NCBI GenBank assembly: GCA_976551045.1
Contig: CDPCPM010000060.1
Location: forward strand, 22,382,001-22,446,000
Direction of reading: 5' to 3'
Source of the DNA: Glaucostegus cemiculus
Taxonomy: Eukaryota
DNA length: 64,000 nt
How positions within the stretch are numbered: position 1 is the stretch's first letter; the number at the start of each line of letters is the position of its first letter. The notes below the pieces were generated by a model. That model ran no database searches. It was not told the DNA's origin and saw only the letters and a program-made list of their open reading frames with translations. Shown piece after piece: positions 22,190-63,039 of the stretch. The translations under genes were made by a program, and so were the position numbers.

Positions 22190-22750
22190 ACTTTCATTCA
22201 ATTCTGGTCATCCCATTACAGGAAGGATGGGAAGGTGATGGAGAGGGTGCAGAAGAGGTTTACCAGAACGCTGCCTGGATTAGGGTGTGTGTGTAATAAG
22301 GAGGATTTGGACAAACTTTGGTTGTTTTCTCTGGAGTGGAGGAGGCTGAGGGGAGACCTGATAGAATTTTATAAAATTATGAGAGTCACAGATAGAGCAG
22401 ACAGCTGGTATCTTTTCCCCAGGGATGAAGTGTCTAATACTAGAGGGCATGCACTTGAGGTGAGAGGGGGTAAGTTCAAAGGAGATGTGCGGGGCAGGTT
22501 TTTTTATGCAGAGAGAGGTGAGTGCCTGGAGTGTACTGCCAGGGATGGTAGTGGAGACAAATATAATAGAGGCGTTTAAGAGGCTCTTAGATTGGCACAG
22601 GACTATGCAGAGAATGGAGGGATATGGGCATTGTGTAGGCAGAAACAATTAGTTTAGTTGGGTATTTAATTATAAATTTAATTAGTTCAGCACAACATCA
22701 TGGGCTGAAGGGCTTGTGCCTGTATTGTGCTGTACTGTTCTATGTCCTAT
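22190..22750 (+). mobile_element. CR1 3' fragment
   Basis: MERVQKRFTRTLPGL...RLRGDLIEFYKIMR; ends gctgtactgttctatgtcctatg. Confidence 0.9.
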
Positions 22751-26975: not shown

Positions 26976-29900
26976 AGGTGTATTAGTGGAAGAGCATTCT
27001 TGCAGTAGTGATCGTAATTCAGATAGATTTAGCATTTTATGGCAAAGAACAAAAGTGAAATAAGAGTGAATGTTCTAATTTGGCTTAAAATTAATCTTAC
27101 TGGACTAAGTGATTCAGCAAAAATCAACTGGAAACAACTAATTAAAGATGAATCTATCTCAAGAAGATTCAAGGGGTTCAGGGTAGACATGCTTTTGCAA
27201 AGAAAGAGGGTGGGACTCTCAAATCTAGAACCTCTTGGATGACAAGCTCCAGAAGAGAGGTTAGGGGAGCAATAAGGGAAGCTTAAATAAACCACCAAGA
27301 GCTTAATACATCAGAAGGTCTCAAAGAGTGCAGAAAGTGCTAAAGAAAATCCAAAGGTGTTTTACAAGTACATAAAGAGTAAAATTATGACTTAGGAAAA
27401 GACAGGGCCAATAAGGGACTTAAAAAGATAATATGAGTTTGGAGTCACAGGGTGTGGATAAGGTTCTTAATTAATACTTTGTGGCTGTCTTCACAAAAGA
27501 AGAGGGGTTATACTGATGTCACAGTTAAGGACAACAACTGTAATACATCCACTAGGATAAACATTGGAAAAGAGGGAGCATTAAGGGGTTTAGCATCTTT
27601 GAAAGTGAATAAATCATCAGGCCCAGATGAAATATACCCCTGGCTGTTAAAAAACAAAGGGAATAAATTGCAGCAGTTCTGAACATTATTTTTTAATCCT
27701 CCTTGGCTACAGGACTGATACCAGAGGATTACAGGTTTACTGGTATTGCACAACATGGAAACTGGCCCTTCGGCCCAACTTGTCCATGCCGACCAAAATG
27801 CCCCATCCAATTTAGTCCCATTTGCCAGCGTCTGGCCCATTACCTTCTAAACCTTTCCAATCCATGTACCTGTCCACCTGTCTTTGGTTTATAAAGGATG
27901 GAAGCACTAACCAAGTAATTATTCACCAATAAGTTTAATTTTGTTGACAGGCAATTTATTGATATTAATTCTGAGGGAAAATATAATCCTTCATTTAAAA
28001 AGCTTACAGATTAATAAGGAAAGTCAGTGTGGATTTGTTAAAGGAGGATCTAACTAACTTGATTACAAAGTTAACAAGGATGGTCAATAACAGTAATGCA
28101 TTTGATTTAGGTTACTTAGATTTTAGCAAGACATTTGACAGGGCCCCTTTATGTCAATGAAAGAAAACAGATATTTGCTGTCTTTGGGAGGTTTCTTTCT
28201 GTAAATTCTTGTGCTCTTTCTCTAAATTGGCAGCCGAATTTCCTACATTACGATCCCATTTCAAAATACCTCATCAGCCTTGGCCTGTCATGAGGTCAAG
28301 TAGAGAACACAGAAACATAAGTTATTATTCTTAGTCTTTTGTTTCTCATATATACTAGATAAACTTCTTTAATATTAATTTTTCAGGATGTCGGTGATGC
28401 AGGGAAGGCTCCTCTCCAATTGTCCTTGAGAAGGTTGTGTCAAGCCACCTTCTTAGATGTTTGAAGACCTTCTGGTGAAGATGCTCCTGTGGTGTTACAG
28501 GGTGTGGAGTTCCAGCATTTAGACCTAGTGATGATGAAGGGATGGTAATGCATTTCCAAGTGAGGATGGCACTGGACTTGGAAGGGAACCTACAGGTAAT
28601 GTTGTTCCCTTGGACATGGTGTGATGCTCTTGTCCTTCTTGGGGATAGAATTTGTAGCTTTGTGAGTCCCAGTCAGCTTAACCAAGTTGATTAACTGCAG
28701 TGCATTTTTCAGGTGATACACAATACAACTATGATCTGTTATTCTGTTATGTAGTTACCCAATGAGTGTGAATTGTATTCAATCTCTTGAATGTGGAAGG
28801 GCTGAGAGGAATCAAACAAAGACTCTTTTTCTTGACACTAATCCAGTGATCCCTGTCAGGAAATATGAGTGCATGTATATCACAGGCTTTTTGACTTCCA
28901 CCAGGTTAGAATTCACTATCAGTACTGTTCCAGAATATATAATCTTTTAAATTTCCCTTTGTTTTAATGTGAGTGCAAACTTGTTTTAAGCAAGTTAATT
29001 ACTCTGCTTAAGAGCACACTGACTAACTTGGATAAGCACATATCTGCAGACAGTGCTGATCATAATTTTTACTCCTTGAATCAGCAAGAAGCTCTGACTG
29101 CATAAGGTCAGCTATGATATTGACTAACAGAGCACGCTGGAAGAGATATATTGCCTATTCCTGCTCCTAAAACCAGTTGGGAATATTTTTAAAACACAAA
29201 TTAGAACAGATGCCAGAAATCTGAAAGAAAATAGAATATTCTGGAAATACTCAGCAGCTCAGACATTTGCAGAGAGGGAAATCCAGTAGAGCGGACCTCT
29301 CATCAGAACTGGGGAAAGCTTATACAAATTGATTTAAATTATTATGACCATATCAGTAGAAATCATAAATTGGTAAATTGGTTTATTATTGTCACATGTA
29401 CCAAGGTACAGTGAAAAACTTTGTTTTGCATGCCATCCATACAGATCATTTCATCACATCAGTACATCGACGTAGTACAAGGGAAAAGCAATAACAGAAT
29501 GTAGAATATAGTGTTGCAGTTACAGAGAAAGTGCAGTGCAGGCAGACAATAAGGTGCAAGGCCCTGAGGAGGTAGATGGTGAGGTCAAGACTCCATCATA
29601 TCCTACAAGGGGACTGTTTTCCTACAATGTTTACACCATTACTGTCCATAAGAAAATCTGTCCAAGTCAGCCTGTAGAGGCTGTCAAAATTCACACAGAA
29701 AGGATGGCCATTTGAGTGAGTAGCAGAATCTAACCTGTAAATAAAGAAAGGAACCTTAGCAAGTCTCTGAACATATGGAGATAAAGGAAGAAAAAATACT
29801 GAAATCAGAATTGCTGTATTTTTTTATGGGATGTGCATTGTTATTCTATTAAAATAGGATGGAAGCCTTTTGAAAAACATTACTTCTTTAGTGAACAGAC

Positions 29901-42859: not shown

Positions 42860-43259
42860 ATCACTTTACATCATAAAAGATCTTCTTTGTGAATTGTCCA
42901 CCAGATATTCACAGCCAGCAGACGTAGAGTTGCAATCCAAGAATCTAATGCTTGGCCTGTCGGCCTTTTTAAGAACTACAGCATCAGTGAACTTGTTTTG
43001 CCATCTGATTGTCATTAGTTTCCTCGTACAGCTGAGGTGATCGTGATTCAGTTTCTTAATGTGGTGTGCACGTGTTGTCCAGGTTCCACAGCCACAAAGC
43101 AAGGTTGTCAGAAAGACAGCCATCCACACTTTGAACTTTGCCTGCAAGCTGATGCCTGATTGTCTCAGAGATGTTCATGGAGTTTACCAAATGCTAACTC
43201 GACCCTAACAACAATCTGCCATGAATATCAGCCTTCAAAAGATAGTTGCACCCTTCTAA
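42860..43259 (-). mobile_element. Degraded RTE (BovB-like) LINE fragment, split by the CR1 insertion and probably continuing to about 47520
   Basis: Minus strand gives LAFGKL...GISLQAKFKVWMAVFLTTLLCGCGTWT...HHIKKLNHDHLSCTRKLMTIRWQNK...VLKKADRPSI, resembling the RTE motif LLYGxETWT...HLSCLRKILxIxWQDK. Confidence 0.8.
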
Positions 43260-43267
43260 GGTCAAAG

Positions 43268-44242
43268 ATGGACAGTCAGGGGGAGGACAGGCTTGTATGC
43301 TGTAGCTGCTTGATGTGGGAGGTCGTGGACCGTACTGCGGTCCACACTGACTACATCTGCAGCAAGTGTGTGTGGCTGGAGGAACTTCGGCTCAGAGTTG
43401 TTGAGCTGGAGTCGCAGCTGCAGACACTGCGCAGCATACGGGAGGGAGAGAGCTATGTTGATACGGTTCATCAGGAGACAGTCACCCCCCTTAGAGCAGA
43501 CTCTTCTGTAGCTCAGGTATCAGACAGAATGGTGACTGTCAGGGGAGAGAAGAGGAAGAAGAAGGCAGACAAGCGGGTAGAGCAGGGCACCCTGGGGGCT
43601 GTTCCCCTCAGTAACAGGTTTTCAACTTTGGAAACTGTGGAGGGGGATAGCCTGCAGGGACCAAGCACAAGTACCCAGGTCACTGGCACCATGACCAGTA
43701 CTACTGCTCAGATGGGGAAGAAGGTGAAGAGTAATGTAGTGGTGATAGGGGACTCGATAGTCAGGGAAACAGATAGGAGATTCTGTGGAAGTGATCATGA
43801 ATACTGGATGGTATGTTGCCTCCCTGGTGCCAGGGTCCAGGATATTACTGATCGGGTTCCCCGGATTCTCAATCGGGAGGGAGAGCAGCCAGTAGTCGTG
43901 GTTCATGTTGGTACCAACGACATAGGTAGAAAGAGGGATGAGGTCCTGCAAGGTGAGTTCAGGGAGCTAGGCAGAAAGCTGAAGACCAGGACCTCAAGGG
44001 TAGTAATCTCTGGATTACTCCCGGTGCCACGTGATAGGGAAGTTAGGAACAGGGAGAGGAGGCAGTTAAATACGTGGCTGAGAGAGTGGTGCAGGGCAGA
44101 GGGATTTAGATTTTTGGATAATTGGGATCTATTCTGGGGAAGGTGGAACCTGTACAGAGAGGACGGGTTACACCCCAACCGGTGGGGGGCAAATATCCTG
44201 GCAACACGTTATGCTTGGTTGGTTGATGAGTGTTTAAACTAG
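43268..44242 (+). CDS. CR1 ORF1p (zinc finger, coiled coil, SGNH/GDSL esterase-like domain), 324 aa
   Basis: CCSC...CSKC zinc finger; LEELRLRVVELESQLQTL heptads; LSNRF motif; VIGDSIVR, VHVGTND and DGLHPN esterase blocks. ATG at 43268; the upstream part of the listed ORF is flanking RTE DNA. Confidence 0.9.
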   Translation: MDSQGEDRLVCCSCLMWEVVDRTAVHTDYICSKCVWLEELRLRVVELESQLQTLRSIREGESYVDTVHQETVTPLRADSSVAQVSDRMVTVRGEKRKKKADKRVEQGTLGAVPLSNRFSTLETVEGDSLQGPSTSTQVTGTMTSTTAQMGKKVKSNVVVIGDSIVRETDRRFCGSDHEYWMVCCLPGARVQDITDRVPRILNREGEQPVVVVHVGTNDIGRKRDEVLQGEFRELGRKLKTRTSRVVISGLLPVPRDREVRNRERRQLNTWLREWCRAEGFRFLDNWDLFWGRWNLYREDGLHPNRWGANILATRYAWLVDECLN

Positions 44243-47200
44243 TTGGGATGGGGGTTGGGAACCAGGAGGGCTGGTCAGAGGATGTAGGGATTACAGAAAA
44301 GGCAGATCTGACAAATGGAGTTGCTTTGAGGAAGGAGAAGCAGTGTACAGGCAGTAATAGTAAAAAGGTGGATAAACTAAACAGGCAAGGCAAGGGAAAC
44401 CAACATGGCTTAAAGGAGGAGGTATGCAGGATTATGTCGACGTGTACTGAAGATGGAGAGGAGTTGCATCAAGCAGGTGATGAGGCTTTGGGGAGGGAGG
44501 GGCAGGATGAGGGCTATAAAAGGGTTAAATTGGATGGGTTAAAGTGTGTTTACTTTAATGCGAGAAGTGTTCGGAATAAGGGTGATGAATTGAGGGCTTG
44601 GATAGGTATGGGGGATTATGATATTGTAGCCATAACTGAGACGTGGCTGTCGTCAGGGCAGGAGTGGGTATTGAACATTCCTGGTTTTCAGTGTTTTAAA
44701 AAGGATAGGGAGGGGGGGAGAAGAGGAGGAGGGGTGGCGATATTGGTCAGGGATGATGTTACGGCTGCGGAAAGGGCTGAGTTTGCGGAAGGATCCTCTT
44801 TCGAGTCGGTGTGGGTGGAAGTGAGGAATAGGAAAAGTGTGGTTACGCTGCTGGGAGTATACTATAGGCCCCCAGGTAGCAGTAGGGATATAGAGGAGTA
44901 GATTGGCAGGCAGTGCTTGGACAGAAGCAAAGATAATAGGGTTGTAATAATGGGTGATTTCAACTTCCCGAATATAGACTGGGACATGCTCAGTGCCAGA
45001 GGTTTGGATGGGAATGAGTTTGTTAAGTATGTCCAGGATGGATTTCTGGAGCAGTATGTTGACAAACCGACTAGAGGGAATGCTGTGTTGGATCTGGTCT
45101 TAGGAAATGAACCGGGACAGGTGAGAGATCTACTAGTGGGTGAGCCTCTGGGAGACAGTGATCATTCCTCGATAAGCTTTAGAATTGTCATGGACAGGCA
45201 TAAGTGCAGGGAGCGTAGGAAGATATTCAATTGGGGTAGGGCAGACTATGAGGCTATAAGGAAAGAGCTTGGGAGTGTAAATTGGGAAGTCCTTTTTGAG
45301 GGGATGTGTACTGTAGAGATGTGGACGTTGTTCAGGGATGTTTTACAGGATGTTGGGGACAGATATGGTCCGGCAAGACGGAGGAAGAATGGAATAGTGA
45401 AGGAACCGTGGGTGACAAGAGAGGTAGAAAGACTGGTTAGGAGGAAGAAGGAGGCTTACGTAAGGTGTAAGTGGCAAGGCTCTGATGTGGCCCGTGAGGA
45501 GTATAGTATAGTGAGAAGGGAACTTAAGAAAGAGCTGAGCAGAGCTAGAAGGGGACATGAAAAGATGTTGGCTCGTAGGGTTAAGGAAAATCCCAAGGCT
45601 TTTTTCTCTTATGTGAAGGGCAGAAGGATGACTAGGGTAAAGGTAGGGCCTATTAAGGACAAAGGTGGGAGGATGTGCCTGGAGGCGGCAGAGGTAGGGG
45701 AGGTACTTAATGAATACTTCTCCTCTGTATTCACCAAGGAGAGGGGCCTTGATGATGTGACAGTATGTGCTGACAAGGGTAATGTTCTTGAGTATGTAGC
45801 TATAGAGAGGGAGGAGGTGATGAAATTGTTAAGTAGTATCAAGACTGATAAGTCTCCGGGGCCCGATGGAATATTCCCCAGGCTGCTTCGGGAAGCGAGG
45901 GAGGAGATTGTTGATCCGCTGGTGAGGATCTTTGAGTCCTCGTTGTCCACGGGGATGGTGCCGGAGGATTGGCGAGTAGCGGATGTTGTTCCCTTGTTTA
46001 AGAAGGGCAGTAGAGATAGTCCGGGAAATTACAGACCGGTGAGCCTCACGTCTGTGGTAGGTAAGCTGTTGGAAAGGATTTTGAGGGACAGGATGTATGA
46101 GCACTTGGAGAGTCATGGACTGATTAGGGACAGTCAGCATGGCTTTGTGAAGGGAAGATCTTGCCTCACGAGCCTGATAGAGTTCTTTGAGGAGGTGACG
46201 AGGAAGCTTGATGAAGGCAGGGCGGTGGATGTAGTGTATATGGATTTTAGTAAGGCGTTTGATAAGGTTCCTCATGGCAGGCTTCTTCAGAAGGTCAGAG
46301 GTCGAGGTATCCAGGGGAGGTTGGCTGTGTGGATAAGAAATTGGCTTACCTGTAGAAGGCAGAGGGTTATGGTGGAGGGAGTGCCTTCGGATTGGAGGGC
46401 TGTGACTAGTGGAGTCCTGCAGGGATCGGTTCTGGGGCCTCTACTCTTTGTTATATTCATAGATGATTTGGATGAAGGAGTGGAGGGATGGGTTGGTAAG
46501 TTTGCAGATGACACCAAGATCGGTGGTGTGGTAGATAGTGTGGAGGACTGTAGGAGCTTACAGGGGGATATTGATAGGATGCAGAAATGGGCTGACAGGT
46601 GGCAGATGGAGTTTAATCCGGAGAAGTGTGAGGTGGTGCACTTTGGGAGGACAAACTCCAGGACAGAGTATAAGGTAAATGGTAAGGTTCTTGGCAGTGT
46701 AGAGGAGCAGAGGGATCTGGGGGTTCATATCCACAGTTCACTCAAAGTTGCCTCGCAGGTGGATAGGGCTGTTAAGAAGGCTTATGGGATGTTGGCTTTT
46801 ATAAATAAAGGGATTGAGTTCAAGAGCAGAGAGGTGATGATGCTGCTTTACAAAACTCTAGTTAGGCCGCACTTGGAATATTGTGTTCAGTTTTGGTCGC
46901 CGCATTATAGGAAGGATGTGGAGGCGTTGGAGAGGGTGCAGAGGCGTTTTACCAGGATGATGCCTGGATTGGAGGGTATGGAATATAAAGAGAGGCTTAA
47001 GGTGCTAGGGCTCTACTCATTAGAGAGGAGGAGGATGAGAGGGGACTTGATAGAGGTGTTTAAGATATTGAGAGGAATAGATAGAGTTAATAGTCAGCGC
47101 CTCTTTCCCAGAGCGCAGATGCTCAAGACGAGAGGGCATGCCTTTAAGATAATAGGTGGAAAGTATAGGGGAGATGTCAGAGGGAAGTTTTTCACCCAGA

Positions 47201-47331
47201 GAGTGGTTGGTGCATGGAATGCACTGCCTGGGGTGGTAGTGGAGGCAGATACGTTGGACAGGTTTAAGAGATTGTTGGATAAGCACATGGAAGAATGTGG
47301 AATAGTAGGATATGAGGGTGGAAAGAGTTAG
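44230..47331 (+). pseudogene. CR1 ORF2 (AP endonuclease plus reverse transcriptase) interrupted by one in-frame TAG at 44899-44901
   Basis: ORFs 44230-44901 and 44917-47331 share a frame. APE motifs: YFNARS, AITETW, GGGV, YYRPP, MGDFN, LDL, SDH. RT motifs: KSPGPDG, NYRPVSL, QHGF, DFSKAFD, QGSVLGP, KFADD. Confidence 0.93.
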
Positions 47332-47385
47332 TTTGGGAGATGTTGTAGGATGGCACAGCTTGATGGGCCGAAGGGCCTGTTCTGT

Positions 47386-47424
47386 GCTGTATTGTTCTAT
47401 TGTTCTATTGTTCTATTGTTCTAA
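47386..47424 (+). repeat. CR1 3' terminal octamer microsatellite (TTCTATTG)n
   Basis: Sequence ctgtattgttctattgttctattgttctattgttcta. Confidence 0.9.
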
Positions 47425-53759: not shown

Positions 53760-54355
53760 GAACATAGAACATAGAAAAACTACAGCACAATTCAGGCCCT
53801 TCGGCCCACAAAGCTGTGCCGAACATGTCCCTACACTAGAATTTACTGGGCATTCCCATAGCCCTCTATTTTACTTATCTCCATGTACCTATCTAACAGT
53901 CTCTTTGAAAGACCCTATCGTATCCGCCTCCACCACTGCTTCCGGCAGCCCACTCCACGCACTCACCACTCTCTGAGTAAAAAACTTACCCCTGACATCT
54001 CCTCTATATCTACTCCCCAGCACCTTAAACCTATGTCCTCTTGTGGCCACCATTTCAGCCCTGGGGAAAAGCCTCTTGACTATCTACCCAATCAATACCT
54101 CTCATCATCTTATACACCTCTATCAGGTCTCCCATCATCCTCCTTCTCTCCAAGGAGAAAAGGCTGAGTTCCCGCAATCTACTCTCATAAGGCATTCTCC
54201 GCATTCCAGGCAGCATCCTCATAAACCTCCTCTGCACCCTCTCTATGGCTTCCACATCTTTCCTGTAGTGAGGCGACCAGAACTGAGCACAATACTCCAA
54301 GTGGGGTCTGACCAGGGATCTATATAACTGAAGCAATACCTCCCGGCTCCTAAAT
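53760..54355 (-). mobile_element. CR1 3' fragment
   Basis: ORF 54055-54336 reads LYRSLVRPHLEYCAQFWSPHYRKDVEAIERVQRRF; the (TTCTATG)n tail appears as agaacatagaacataga on +. Confidence 0.92.
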
Positions 54356-54374
54356 TGAATAATGGAAGAAAGGT

Positions 54375-55649: not shown

Positions 55650-56350
55650 ACCATAAGACATAGGAGCAGAATTAGGCCATTCAGCCTATCGAGTCTGCTC
55701 CGCCATTCGATCATGGCTGATTTATTTTTCCTTCTCAATCCCATCTTCCTGCCTTCTCCCCATAACCTTTGACACCCTTACTAATCAAGAACCTATCAAC
55801 CTCCGCTTTAACTATACCCAGTGAATTCCACAGATTCACCACGCTCTGGCTAAAGAAATTCCTCCTCATCTCTGTACTAAAGCGATGTCCTTCTATTCTG
55901 AGGTTGTGCCCTCTGGTGCCACTACTGGAAACACCCTCTCCATGTCCACTCTTTCTAGGCCTTTCAATTTTCCATAAGTTTCAATGAGGTCCCCCCCTCA
56001 TCCTTCTAAACTCCAGTGAGTACAGGCCCAGAGCCATCAAACACGTTAAGCCTTTCATCCCTGGGATCATTCTTGTAAACCTCCTCTGGACCCTCCCCAA
56101 CACCAGAACATCGCTCTTTAAATACAGGGCCCAAAACTGCTCACAATACTCCAAATGTGGTCAGGCAATGCCTTATAAAGCCTCAGCATTACATCGTTGC
56201 TTTTATATTTTAGTTCTCTCGAAATGAATGCTAACATTACATTTGCCTTCCTTACAACGGACTCCATCTGCAAGTTAACCTTTAGGGAATCCTTCACTGG
56301 GACTCCCTTTGCACCTCTGATTTCTGAATTCTCTCGCCACTTAGAAAATA
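55650..56350 (-). mobile_element. CR1 3' fragment, internally deleted
   Basis: ccataagacataggagcagaattaggccattcagcc end on +; the minus strand gives CR1 C-terminal coding (PHLEYCEQFWA). Confidence 0.85.
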
Positions 56351-58865
56351 GTTATTTTGTTAAGTGCCATTGGAAGGGGAAGTTTATTGGATATGGGTGA
56401 AGGACAGAACAGGGAGGAGATGCTCTATTTGAAATGCTGAATGTGGAGGAGAGGGGAAGATATTCTTGACAATGGTATCACGCTGAGAAATGGGGGACGA
56501 TGTTCCATTAAATGTGGATGCTGGTGGGTTGCGGACAAGGGGAGACCTGTCACCATCTTGGAAGGGAGTGGTCCACATTTCTGAAATTCCTCGAGAAATT
56601 TAAAGCAGAATCATTAATGAATTGTGTGTGTGAGTGAGTAATGGCACTGACTGATTATCTTGAAAACTTCCATCAGGAAATTTCATATTGTAAAATCTAT
56701 ATGTCTTGGGCCTGGGGGTTCCTGTGGTCATTGTACATGAGCGAATTTCTTAGGAAAAATTGATAAGCTTCCAAAGAGATAATTATTGGACTTAATCATC
56801 AGGGGAGAGACGGTGTGGTTGGAACATGGAATGCGCTATGACATGAAGTGGCTATTGAATAGCTTTCAATGGAATGCAAGATAGTGCGTGAGGGAAAAAT
56901 GAAGGTTGAAATAGGGTGAGTGAAGATTGTGTGTGGAACACAAATGTAGACAGACTGGCTGGGAAAAGATGCCCACATTTATGTTGTAAATTCTATTTAC
57001 ATTTGTGTAGACTACACAAATCACCCGACTAATGCTGCTGGTTTCATCACTCTGATTGTAAACCTGATAGGCAAACACTTGTTTATTCATCATTAATTAT
57101 TTAAATACAGTGCAATTGTTCATCCAAATGAATTTAGTTCACCATCAGTTGAAATAATGGATTAAACAACCTAGTTTTTGGCTAGTGTGAGTGCATTTTG
57201 TGGTCTCTTTACTGCTTTCTCCAGTAAAGAAGACAAAATTATGTCCAAAATGAGTCTCTGTGCAGAGAGAATAACTAGGTGCAGATGGCAGAAACATCTT
57301 AGTGGTTATTATCCCTCGGTGACCTCTCTTTATGAAGATCCTGAATCATTTTTATTGGTGTTTGGAGGGTGGCCAGCATTGGAAGAACAAGAAAATCTAT
57401 ATCTAGCTTTCATAATCTAGCATTGTGCTTGGTTGAACTGACTCTAATCCTTGTGATGGTCCCCGTCAGACACTCAAAATAACCTTGACCCTGCTAAAAT
57501 TGTTGGTATTGTTGGAGATGAAATTGGGTTGGAGGGAATGACGAGAGCATTTCAAGCTCCAAAATGTGCATGCATATTTGTGGGGGTGGCTTCCTCAGAT
57601 GCCATATGGCTGAGGACAAGTTGTCATGATTCTGAGTACTGGCCCTTGATTTGGTTCCTTAGATGCCTCGTTGTACAGCACATGGATTCCATGCTGGGCT
57701 GATTTCATAATGACACACACCTGAGCCCCATCAGGGACCTAGCATAAGTACCTGGGTTTCTCTAACACTAGTTGCCAGAGGATTGGTCAACCTTCAGGTA
57801 TACTTTGGCTTCTTACTGCTTAGAGTGGTCTACTCCAGAGCAGTCCTGTGTTCTCTATTCCTGCTTGAAGATTCAGTTTGTGTTGGGATTACTACTCAGA
57901 TCTCCGAGGCAAGATTTCCTTCCAGTTGCTGCCTGTGTTTGGTCCAGAGGAAGTATCCTGACTCCAGTCTTGCACCAATGTGCTGCATTTGGGTTCTCTG
58001 TGATCTTGCTCTTCAATCAACATTGTGACACAGGTAGCTTGTCCGTGCTTAATGAAGGTCAGATAGCTCATGAAATCAACTACATCCAACACTGGTTTTA
58101 TGACACTATTGCCTTATAGGACCTCAGCTTTCCAGCTAAGGTTTATCTCAATATCTTGCAGATTGAAAACATTGCCTGTCTGCATTTCACACATTTGGCA
58201 TTCATTCACTGAGCACGAGCAAGCTACCTGCTCTCATTGAGAAAGCATCCATTGCAACTCATCTACAAATATGCACAAAGAGGAACAGGAGATGGGGCAA
58301 AAATTTTTTTACTGGAATCCCATCAGAACAGAAAGATTAAGGGTATTAGGAAATAAAAGCTGACTGTGGCTGCTTTCTCTATAAAATAGAAGCCTTGACA
58401 GAGGTCTTTGAAATTATGCAAGAGTTTGACAGTTAGTGCTGCCACCTTTTATCCTGACCTTTGGAGCTGTCTGTATGGAGTTTGCACATTCTCTCTGGGA
58501 TGGCATGGGGTTCCTCTGGATGCTCCAATTTCCTCTCATGTTCCAAAGACATGCTGGTAAGTTAACTGGCTACTGTAACTGCCTCTTAGGTGTAAGTTAA
58601 TGGCATAAAGAATCAAAAGGATTTAACAGATGTGTGCAAGAAAGAATAAGCTACAGTGGTGGAGGGAAATAGAGAGGGGGAAATAGGGCTGATATATTTG
58701 TTCCCCAGGAGCTGGCATGGATACAGTGGGCTGAATGGCCTCCTGTATCATTAAAGTATAAAGATGATCTGCAGAAAACTTTATGTAGGTTAGATCATTT
58801 GGAACTGGGCCATCATTAATTTCATAACCTGCATTTCATCACTTCAGAAATAATATACTTAGTTG

Positions 58866-60499: not shown

Positions 60500-61455
60500 T
60501 AGAGTCGCAGAGGTTCACTGCATTAAAACAGGCCCTTTGGCCCAACTTGTCCATGCTGACCAGGATGTCTATCCGAGCTGGTCCCATTTACCTGTGTTTG
60601 TCTCATATTAGTCTAATCCCCTTCTATTAATGTATCTGTCCAAATGTCTTTTAAACACTGTAATTGTACCCTCCTCCACAGCTTCCTTTGGCAACTCGTT
60701 CCAAGTACCCACCACCCTCTGTATGAAAACATTTCCCCTTAGGTTCCCTTTAAACTTTTCCCCTTTCATCTTGTATCCTCCTGTTTCAGACTCCCCTTCC
60801 CTTGGATAAAGACTGTGACCACCCACTTTACCTATGCCCCTCATAATTTCATACACTTCTATAAGGTCACCCCTTCAGCCTCCTACGCTCCAGGGAAAAA
60901 AGTCCCAGCCTATCCAGCCTCTCCTTGTATATCAAGCCCTCCATTCCTGGTGGTATCCTCGTTAAACTTCTTTGCACCTTTCCCAGTTAGATGACATCCT
61001 TCCTATATCTGGGTGACCAGAACTGTGCACAATGCTCCAAGCATGGACTCACCAATGACCTGTATAGTTTTAAAAAATTTTTTAATTAATTTTAATTTAT
61101 TTACAGCGTGGTAACAGGCCCTTTCGGCCCAACGAGTCCATGCCGCCCATTTTGAACCCCCAAATTAACCTACCCATACGTCTTTTAGAATGTGGGAGGA
61201 AACCAGAGCACCCGGAGGAAACCCACGTAGACATGGGAGAACGTACAAACTCCTTACAGTCAGCAATGGGAATCGAACCCTGATCGCTGGCGCTGTAACG
61301 GCGTTGTGCTAACCGCTATGCTATTGTGCCACCATGGTGCATGTTGCAGCATGACGTCCCAACTCTTGTACTTAATATCTTGACTGTCAAATGCCTTCTT
61401 CACTACCCTGTCTACCAGGGTCTCCACTTTCAGGGAACTATGTACCTGTACACTA
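60500..61455 (-). mobile_element. CR1 3' fragment interrupted by a SINE at about 61067-61331
   Basis: YEIMRGIGKV...FIQRVVGTWNELP; CR1 coding resumes at 61335-61450 (VQVHSSLKVETLVDRVVKKAF). Confidence 0.85.
61067..61331 (-). mobile_element. SINE type B inserted in a CR1 fragment
   Basis: Reverse complement of the 26727 copy, with an A/T-rich tail. Confidence 0.88.
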
Positions 61456-62324: not shown

Positions 62325-62650
62325 ATAGAACAGTACAGCACAGTACAGGCCCTTTGGCCCATGAAGTTGTGCCGACATTTTATCCTGCTCTAAGATTTAT
62401 TTCACCCTTCCCTCCTACATAGCCCTCCATCTTACTGACACTCATGTGTCTATCCAAGAGTCTCTTAAATGTCCCTAATGTATCTGTCCCCACATCTTTG
62501 CTGGCAGTGCGTTTCACGCACCCACCACTCTCTGTGTAAAACTAAAACAACTTCTCTCTGACATTCCCCCTATCCATTCCTCCAATAGCCTTAAAATTAT
62601 GCCCCCTGGTGTGAGCCATTTTGGCCCTGGGAAAATGTCTCTGATTGTCC
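62325..62650 (-). mobile_element. CR1 3' fragment; smaller CR1 ends also at about 24360-24460(-), 25320-25730(-), 27735-27880(-), 38040-38165(-), 40290-40430(+), 47750-47920(+), 59300-59470(+)
   Basis: catagaacagtacagcacagtacaggccctttggccc is the reverse complement of the CR1 terminus. Confidence 0.8.
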
Positions 62651-63039
62651 AACGGGAAAAAAAACTTCTGGCACTATTTCCGCTCTCACCTCCTCCATCT
62701 GCCTATCATCCTTCTTTACCTGGATCCACCTATCACCTGTGAGCTCTTGATCCACCCCTTCCCTCCACTGGCCATCTCCCCTCTACCTTTCAGATAAATG
62801 GTCTCAATCCAAAATGTCCACTGTCCATGTCTCTCTGCAGATGCTGCCTGATCTGTTGAGTTCCTCTAGCAGATTGTATGTTGCTCCAGATCCCAGCATC
62901 TGCACTCTCTTGCGTCTTCATTGCTATCTATTGTTTCGAGGTCAGGACTGTGAACTCCAGTCCATGCTTCTGCAGTCTCAGTGTAAAATAATGTAAAAGG
63001 TGTCCACTGTGAGGGTCAGGAAAGGAATCTGCCCTTGAG

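Follow-up and report, generated by a model that had tools for sequence, protein, structure and literature searches.

A conserved T_TTA_AAC-stop signal at the ORF1/ORF2 junction of esterase-bearing CR1 LINEs as a likely -1 frameshift site

How a LINE's second open reading frame (ORF) is translated is still presented as an open question in passages of reviews, reinitiation being the favoured answer (PMC3894237, PMC5381506, PMC2881922). It was raised here by a CR1-type copy lying in 64,000 nucleotides of DNA from Glaucostegus cemiculus (the window; contig CDPCPM010000060.1), in which ORF2 lies in the -1 frame relative to ORF1. The matter extends beyond one ray, as CR1 is, according to part of PMC13343379, the retrotransposon group that dominates in most vertebrates. 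From the comparisons reported below, the T_TTA_AAC-stop signal at the junction is likely to send a minor share of ribosomes into ORF2 by a -1 slip, which would give an ORF1-ORF2 fusion.

Judged by its domains and 3' repeats, the element is a CR1-type LINE with an esterase ORF1 (Table 1). ORF1 matched Pfam Lipase_GDSL_2 (E 3e-17) and the LINE esterase of PDB entry 4c1b (E 3e-43), and its AlphaFold2 model ended in a helix spanning residues 305-323. ORF2 displayed the Pfam domains Exo_endo_phos and RVT_1, and no protease domain was found in a Pfam scan of the element. Copies were ~99 % identical from 43259 on, near which the window copy is truncated at its 5' side, and short tandem repeats without poly(A) closed the 3' end (47390-47424 in the window sequence, further copies being inspected as well). 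Of 40 places scored out of 1090 candidates, 32, the window's own included, shared the top score, with 100 % along the 361 bp of the junction region. In the window copy, ORF2 is interrupted by a premature TAG (44899-44901); this stop was missing in all 29 other copies examined, 23 of which kept the ORF2 frame open across the 562 codons compared. A search of the same genome with P0036 at E 1e-110 returned no match. One low-depth contig, from a single run of contigs, spanned the junction with no listed difference there and no joints, a result that tells nothing about expression. The initial annotation had described ORF1 as ending in TGT TTA AAC TAG with the heptamer in X_XXY_YYZ phase, a TGA limiting the overlap of the two frames to 13 nt, the -1 frame opening at 44230, and G runs at 44245-47, 44250-54, 44257-59 and 44268-70; all of these coordinates were confirmed. 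The premature TAG and the 5' truncation had gone unmentioned in it.

Table 1. Features of the CR1 copy and of its ORF1/ORF2 junction (positions within the window)
Feature	Position	Strand	Remarks
CR1-type LINE copy	43259..47424	+	belongs to a young, high-copy family; truncated on the 5' side shortly ahead of ORF1; 3' end made of short TATTGTTC-type repeats
ORF1, 324 aa	43268..44242	+	Cys cluster plus coiled coil at the N-terminus, then a disordered middle part and an SGNH esterase; C-terminus ...ECLN*
Last -1-frame stop, TGA	44227..44229	+	read from the sequence; caps the overlap at 13 nt
ORF2 frame, -1 to ORF1	44230..47331	+	charged linker of ~100 codons, APE endonuclease, reverse transcriptase
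Slippery heptamer T_TTA_AAC, likely -1 shift site	44233..44239	+	phase and conservation
ORF1 stop, adjoining the heptamer	44240..44242	+	TAG here; TAG, TAA or TGA depending on family
Four-tract G-quadruplex pattern	44245..44270	+	loops of 2, 2 and 8; confined to the window's subfamily
In-frame ATG, good Kozak context	44248..44250	+	family-specific; the conserved G run begins with its G
G5-NN-G3 run, candidate stimulator	44250..44259	+	conserved; begins 10 nt past the heptamer
5-bp hairpin ACCAG/CTGGT	44261..44275	+	MFE fold; family-specific; 21 nt from the heptamer

Junctions were compared in 188 records, of which 153 fell into six families and 35 into small clusters or singletons, the latter including truncated copies of the window's family, metagenome loci and two old copies with TTTCAAC. 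Fifty-four locus-strands devoid of an ORF1 end or anchor were left out. Thirty loci were retrieved with junction-containing DNA and the remainder with LN-ending proteins, so that the sampling leans towards the signal. None of 84 candidates from viral contigs was a relative, and 18 matches in prokaryote genomes (23-29 % identity) were set aside as presumed bacterial SGNH enzymes. The accompanying tree was built on the esterase only and its deep branches are weak.

The heptamer is conserved at the nucleotide level beyond coding need and far above chance. T_TTA_AAC followed by a stop ended ORF1 in all six esterase-CR1 families sampled in this genome and in four amniote-type metagenome contigs (L033, L035, L036 and L045), which were only 24-42 % identical to them; L031 displayed the variant G_TTA_AAC TAG. 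The modal letter was invariant at all seven positions in 10/10 lineages. Exact heptamer and stop were retained by 126 of the 153 copies from the six families and missing in 27, many of which belonged to old decayed families. No other in-frame X_XXY_YYZ heptamer occurred in the 324 codons of ORF1. Although representatives of the six families were only 42-69 % identical over the 135 C-terminal residues of ORF1, the terminal Leu was modally TTA, the Asn AAC and the preceding codon T-ending in 6/6. Control columns that were equally invariant in protein behaved differently, L251 and L311 being TTA in 0/6 each and N268 being AAT in 5/6; since other invariant Leu and Asn columns use other codons, the constraint acts on the nucleotide letters. 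With background codon usage (TTA for 14 of 92 Leu, AAC for 18 of 41 Asn, T-ending codons 73/200), the joint chance of the heptamer codons was 0.024 per family and 2e-10 for six families if independent, an assumption which overstates the latter figure.

Protein homologues pointed in the same direction. Of 105 ORF1 homologues, 56 ended in LN, mostly 26 residues past the DGLH motif, with named sources among sharks and rays, coelacanth, turtles, one frog and one teleost; the other 49 were fragments, chimeric gene models and members of a fish clade. Ten different amino acids preceded LN, only one of the 56 being a residue without a T-ending codon, as against 30/56 and 20/56 at the two positions immediately preceding it. 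The structure alignment with the ZfL2-1 esterase stopped at profile position 310 of 314 and the fish clade ended about two residues earlier, without LN, which indicates that LN is not required by the esterase fold.

The frame relation was likewise preserved. In each of the four families with well-preserved copies, the endonuclease was modally in frame -1 (45/47, 25/33, 17/30 and 11/25 copies at modal length), while the two oldest families had too few intact linkers for a frame comparison. Stop-to-endonuclease distances of 110, 137, 140, 143, 155, 227, 317 and 341 nt were all 2 mod 3. From heptamer to endonuclease, 37 to 114 codons were counted across families; the charged linker of ~100 residues initially described was thus true of the window's family and proved specific to it, with other lengths elsewhere. 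Upstream of the heptamer, the -1 frame was open for only one to five codons in the other families with intact linkers, and for 17 in L045. Ahead of any ATG, the linker was stop-free in the -1 frame in seven of eight lineages (shuffle chances 0.03-0.61 each), the other frames carrying stops; the remaining one, the decayed copy L045, had two stops. The first Met of the other families stood at codon 18, 47, 48 or 181 from the heptamer. In copy L311 an unbroken frame extended over 972 codons from the heptamer, and the earliest Met stood at codon 181, which lies within the endonuclease and beyond its Asn motif (codon 50); Met 181 was also displayed by L320 and L321. In L302 and L303 (978 codons open), the first Met at codon 47 preceded the endonuclease Asn by one codon. 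A spurious early endonuclease match, produced by an ATG pattern search in L120 and L114, was left out. No conserved AUG adjoining the stop was present across the families compared. A search for longer proteins, weak in itself, gave four matches, none being a clear natural full-length ORF1-ORF2 fusion.

Counted from the heptamer, G was present at +11 to +15 in 10, 10, 10, 9 and 10 of 10 lineages, third codon positions included, and at +18 to +20 in 9, 9 and 8, while +4 to +10 were variable. An unstructured conserved motif ~10 nt downstream, as in arterivirus-type signals, is therefore present (G5-NN-G3 at +11). Canonical -1 signals are described in part of PMC7618472 as having an RNA structure 5-9 nt downstream; single-sequence folds of 17 junctions revealed no conserved stem-loop at that distance. 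Fold z-scores ranged from -2.5 to +1.3 (below -2 in 1/17), the 70 nt after the stop of the window scoring -0.24. For the 70 nt past the stop, both a local hairpin and a shared fold were rejected, no structure being common to the 17 junctions; the ACCAG/CTGGT hairpin of the initial annotation did appear in the MFE fold, with the distance and restricted distribution given in Table 1. No pairing partner of the G run at the 3' end was common to the families. A site ~1300 nt into the endonuclease-RT frame ranked among the top five G-run partners in some families, not in family 22, and one family displayed a C-rich 3' UTR.

Taken as a frameshift signal, the junction would operate at the final Leu and Asn codons of ORF1, with tRNA-Leu and tRNA-Asn shifting their pairing from UUA/AAC to UUU/AAA. 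The majority of ribosomes would terminate at the adjoining stop and release ORF1p, while those that slipped would produce a fusion of esterase, linker, endonuclease and reverse transcriptase, the ratio of ORF1p to fusion being set as in Gag/Gag-Pol. UUUAAAC is an efficient slippery site in reporters described in part of PMC3919603. The pause might be provided by the G run, most plausibly as a single-stranded, protein-bound site, with some possible help from slow termination at the adjoining stop; a hairpin, a pseudoknot or a three-tier G-quadruplex appears a less likely source. Reinitiation at ATG 44248 may contribute to some extent in the window's family. Observations speaking against frameshifting include the missing canonical structure at 5-9 nt and, in the window's family, an ATG in good context 6 nt past the stop. 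A broader scheme is possible but rather doubtful, in which esterase CR1 LINEs would make their endonuclease-RT only as a Gag-Pol-like fusion, by a -1 shift older than the shark/amniote split and stimulated by a protein on the G run 10 nt downstream instead of by RNA structure, as a G-rich counterpart of the arterivirus signal; an insect-type sister lineage would achieve the fusion by UGA-C readthrough.

The main competitor of frameshifting is termination followed by reinitiation, the mode reported for L1 and SART1, at ATG 44248 or, in other families, at a codon other than AUG close to the stop, with the conserved letters acting as reinitiation signal. It was considered quite unlikely, even though ATG 44248 was shared by 45/45 open copies of the window's young family and although ORF2 translation of L1 and SART1 depends on ORF1 translation (passages of PMC2881922 and PMC3894237). 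The open linker is equally compatible with it, and since L1 ORF2 initiation is described as AUG-independent in a passage of PMC5009743, so would be a missing ATG if initiation were at a non-AUG codon. However, the position of the ATG, correctly placed in frame by the initial annotation, was not conserved beyond the window's family, some unbroken-frame copies lacked any ATG ahead of the endonuclease, and the -1-frame codon preceding the heptamer (GTG in the window) differed in other families. UGGGA was found 40-90 nt upstream of the stop, the criterion taken from part of PMC3542737, in only two of ten lineages. Above all, reinitiation leaves the in-phase X_XXY_YYZ match of the fixed letters unexplained. 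A conserved ATG beside a non-conserved heptamer had been named beforehand as the outcome contrary to frameshifting, and the families displayed the opposite. Codon-level conservation, the fixed -1 relation and the unconserved ATG thus support the frameshift and fusion initially put forward. As to the stimulator of such a shift, the four-tract G-quadruplex after a 5-nt spacer proposed at the same time is an unlikely one, and so is a weaker two-tier or intermolecular form from the G run. G-quadruplexes 5-8 nt past UUUAAAC gave up to ~7 % shifting in reporters, and longer loops reduced it (parts of PMC3919603), so that the loops of the window pattern count against this part of the proposal. With a G4Hunter score of 1.76, the junction ranked in the top 0.8 % of 25-nt windows across the element, and a two-tier G-quadruplex was placed by ViennaRNA immediately past the stop, for the window as well as for L036; yet the element is G-skewed throughout and two patterns further on score higher. 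Four G3 tracts were present at only 1/17 representative junctions, none with all loops of 7 nt or less, and 17/49 copies belonging to the window's family, which form a sister subfamily, lacked the first tract. The four-tract form was consequently rejected as general stimulator.

It is very unlikely that the junction was kept for protein reasons (Leu-Asn closing the esterase helix, Gly-x-Gly within the linker) or as another RNA signal, for instance a splice acceptor that would give rise to a subgenomic message for ORF2. L323 closes the well-predicted final helix, and in most families L-x-x-x-G-x-G is encoded in the -1 frame; but synonymous positions were fixed at the junction and free at other invariant Leu and Asn columns, G did not change at third positions, nor at one first position where the amino acid does, and the shifted G run of L031 no longer encoded the second Gly. 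An AG stood at +10/+11 in six of ten lineages, but it was missing there in the window's family and no pyrimidine tract was found. Chance or shared ancestry without function appears extremely improbable and, on the sequences compared, is largely refuted. TTTAAAC is common as a word, occurring 8 times per strand and 16 times in total in the window, so that its phase, position and conservation constitute the evidence and not the word itself. The families are related by descent, but +4 to +10 and the control codons diverged while the heptamer did not, being kept down to the protein identities of the amniote-type contigs.

If true, frameshifting in CR1 would be a second answer to LINE ORF2 translation, different from that of well-studied LINEs. 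ORF2 start sites of CR1 would be misannotated and the esterase domain would be physically joined to the reverse transcriptase. Slippage would set the ratio of ORF1p to ORF2p and expose the elements to host anti-frameshift factors, and a -1 signal type with an unstructured G-run stimulator would be added.

Canonical vertebrate CR1 (ORF1 type IV, CR1 subgroup 7) has the same ORF1, with zinc finger/coiled coil and esterase, and an APE-RT ORF2 (passages of PMC4120745 and PMC13343379); frameshifting comes up in neither paper, as far as the passages considered go. No report of CR1 frameshifting was found in the literature searched, which comprised papers from after the early CR1 descriptions. The legend of a review figure states that Dictyostelium TRE5-A and TRE3-A require a -1 frameshift for ORF2, and names no vertebrate LINE with such a shift (PMC5911963). 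Like CR1, these are APE-type non-LTR elements with two ORFs and with APE and RT in ORF2, as described in that source; unlike CR1, they are amoeba elements from another clade with an unrelated ORF1. L1 and SART1 share the bicistronic LINE RNA in which ORF2 needs ORF1 translation (parts of PMC2881922 and PMC3894237). Their ORF2 product is a protein of its own, started at an AUG close to the stop, whereas in CR1 the AUG is unconserved and the slippery site conserved. Viral U_UUA_AAC shifting, UUUAAAC being the coronavirus 1a/1b slippery site, and retroviral Gag-Pol resemble CR1 in the in-phase heptamer, the -1 polymerase frame and the short overlap. In contrast to these viral signals, the CR1 junction displayed no stem-loop conserved 5-9 nt downstream in single-sequence folds, its stop always adjoins the heptamer, and its host is a LINE devoid of a protease domain in the Pfam scan. 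A parallel in the downstream region is PRRSV nsp2 shifting, which involves nsp1beta and PCBP on CCCANCUCC and no RNA structure (part of PMC7618472): in both, a low-complexity motif, short and conserved, stands 10 nt past the shift site, but that of CR1 is G-rich instead of C-rich, only its -1 shift is productive, and its protein stimulator is putative.

The initial annotation had placed a candidate -1 frameshift signal, the heptamer T_TTA_AAC (44233-44239) followed by the ORF1 stop TAG (44240-44242) and a G-quadruplex, between ORF1 and ORF2 of a CR1 element, and every coordinate at this junction was correct when rechecked in the sequence. The heptamer was the sole in-frame X_XXY_YYZ site in ORF1. 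The solved structure nearest to the ORF1 esterase was 4c1b (E 3e-43). In an AlphaFold2 model, an N-terminal Cys region was predicted to be followed by a long helix, then by a disordered middle and the esterase, whose last helix would stop at residue 323. Domain search detected APE and RT in ORF2, and the best named ORF1 relatives came from rays and sharks. In the source genome (2.85 Gb; 1090 candidates), 32 of 40 scored places, including that of the window, displayed the top score with 100% identity over 361 bp, and fetched copies were ~99% identical; the family is therefore young. The window copy is truncated at its 5' end near 43259 and carries a premature stop (44899-44901) encountered at that position in none of 29 other copies, so the signal belongs to the family and not to a single copy.

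Features of the window and of the compared metagenome loci
Feature	Location	Strand or source	Basis
CR1-type LINE with ORF1/ORF2 junction	about 43259-47424	+	sequence and copy alignment
ORF1, 324 aa, SGNH esterase	43268-44242	+	domain search
Decayed fragments of LINE RT, chiefly 3' ends	998-1339, 22196-22625, 27330-28148, 53904-54372, 55795-56411, 60602-61067, 62407-62652	both strands	
TGA-CTA/TGA-CCA ORF1 ends, frame-0 stop-free linker	L041, L044, L047, L055, L058, L074, L110	metagenome contigs	

Among 105 ORF1 homologues, 56 ended in Leu-Asn, mostly 26 residues past the DGLH motif; their named sources included sharks, rays, coelacanth, turtles, a frog and a teleost. The remaining 49 were fragments, chimeric gene models or members of one well-supported fish clade, which ended about two residues sooner without Leu-Asn. 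The residue preceding Leu-Asn took ten identities, and residues lacking a T-ending codon (E, Q, K, M or W) occurred there in one of the 56, against 30 and 20 at the two positions immediately upstream; a fixed T before TTA would predict this near-absence. CR1 ORF1 sequence was also embedded in database proteins P0001, P0007, P0070, P0093, P0106 and P0107, appeared under host-gene names (e.g. ribosomal protein S24 isoform, hydroxyacid oxidase 2) and was once labelled Pseudomonas aeruginosa; the host-named and Pseudomonas-labelled entries are likely mis-built gene models and contamination.

Searches of the source genome with a DNA query and six proteins (a further such search gave no match), together with a metagenome scan, yielded 188 usable junction records, 153 of them in the six esterase-CR1 families of the source genome. 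The loci were not sampled blindly: junction DNA served as the query for the first 30, and the proteins used as queries ended in Leu-Asn, a bias toward those residues but not toward their codons. The modal codons at the ORF1 end were NNT, TTA and AAC in all six families. A stop was the modal codon after these in five of them, whereas some copies of the sixth, which is old, carry small indels that displace the alignment. The invariant control Leu columns L251 and L311 were modally TTA in none of the six families and the invariant Asn column N268 was AAT in five, background codon use being 14/92 for TTA and 18/41 for AAC. Exact heptamer and stop were kept in 126 of the 153 copies. Identical seven letters and a stop were displayed by metagenome contigs L033, L035, L036 and L045, of amniote type as judged by likeness to a turtle protein. 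The junction feature is real and conserved. It may even predate vertebrates, since three distant esterases outside vertebrate groups (P0087, P0094, P0100) likewise end in Leu-Asn and in locus L031 G_TTA_AAC TAG precedes a G run by 7 nt and the endonuclease lies in the -1 frame.

Wherever copies were well preserved, the endonuclease lay in the -1 frame relative to ORF1, at 110 to 341 nt from the stop (all distances 2 mod 3) and behind a charged, variable linker of 37-114 codons. Reinitiation at the ATG at 44248 had been considered as an alternative, and this ATG has a good context and was present in all 45 open copies of the young family. Across families, however, the heptamer was conserved while the ATG was not: elsewhere the first Met, counted from the heptamer, was codon 18, 47 or 48 or a far later one. 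Counting from the heptamer, locus L311 has 972 open codons, and its endonuclease Asn motif (codon 50) lies well upstream of its first Met (codon 181, common to L320 and L321). L302 and L303 each have 978 open codons and a first Met one codon upstream of the endonuclease Asn, so a start there would lose the first strand of the domain. The linker upstream of any ATG was stop-free in seven of eight lineages (shuffle chances 0.03 to 0.61 each). AUG reinitiation cannot serve every family. Non-AUG reinitiation near the ORF1 stop is possible but leaves the slippery letters unexplained, and a -1 frameshift at the junction is likely. Two natural copies, L162 (G000:C302:260418-261326, minus strand) and L163, contain a longer G run just 5' of the heptamer, so that both ORFs share a frame (open for 1296 codons in L162); each is a single copy and may reflect an error made during insertion or assembly.

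While the heptamer and the -1 frame of the proposed signal stood, its four-tract G-quadruplex was unsupported as stimulator, being found at one of 17 representative junctions and lacking its first tract in 17 of 49 same-family copies. The element is G-skewed, and G4 patterns in the ORF2 frame (44490-44513 and 44708-44734; G4Hunter 2.16 and 2.28) scored above the junction. Fold z-scores ranged from -2.5 to +1.3 (-0.24 at the window's junction) with no hairpin common to the 17 junctions, nor did the families share a long-range pairing partner. The 3' UTR of family 23 (L306-L308) contains a T/C-rich segment partly complementary to its own junction G run, which was absent from the other families. 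Counted downstream of the heptamer, G occupied +11 to +15 in 10, 10, 10, 9 and 10 of ten lineages and +18 to +20 in 9, 9 and 8, positions +4 to +10 being variable. The conserved positions include third codon positions and GGGGG starts at 0-7 of about 1460 downstream positions; the constraint therefore acts on RNA. The strongest candidate for the stimulator is this G run, conceivably as a two-tier or intermolecular G4.

At the end of ORF1, a ribosome would hold UUA in its P site, with AAC in its A site, and re-pairing to UUU/AAA would occur at some frequency. Quite probably, some ribosomes slip -1 in this manner, continuing as ...CLN-LVGMG... through the linker into endonuclease and RT, while the rest would terminate.

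A separate clade of esterase LINE-like metagenome loci (insect-type, by host inference) lacked the heptamer. TGA-CTA or TGA-CCA was encountered at 11 of 18 metagenome ORF1 ends located by the DGLH anchor, and of the nine loci where an endonuclease was detectable, seven had it in frame 0, preceded by an open linker, and no ATG was fixed. UGA-CUA is a known readthrough context (PMC3542737), and these features suggest candidate stop-codon readthrough as a second recoding route to an ORF1-ORF2 fusion.

A -1 frameshift is stated for Dictyostelium TRE5-A and TRE3-A (PMC5911963), one review covers a frameshift inside the HeT-A gag gene (PMC5009743), and reviews favour reinitiation for ORF2 of L1 and SART1 (PMC3894237, PMC5381506, PMC2881922). 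No description of CR1 frameshifting was found in the literature searched, which mostly excluded subscription journals, where an older remark on CR1 ORF overlap is possible. The junction is likely a variant of an established kind of recoding, in a group of LINEs for which these searches gave no earlier record of it. With a structure-free conserved motif 10 nt past the shift site, its layout resembles that of the protein-stimulated PRRSV signal (PMC7618472), although the motif here is G-rich.
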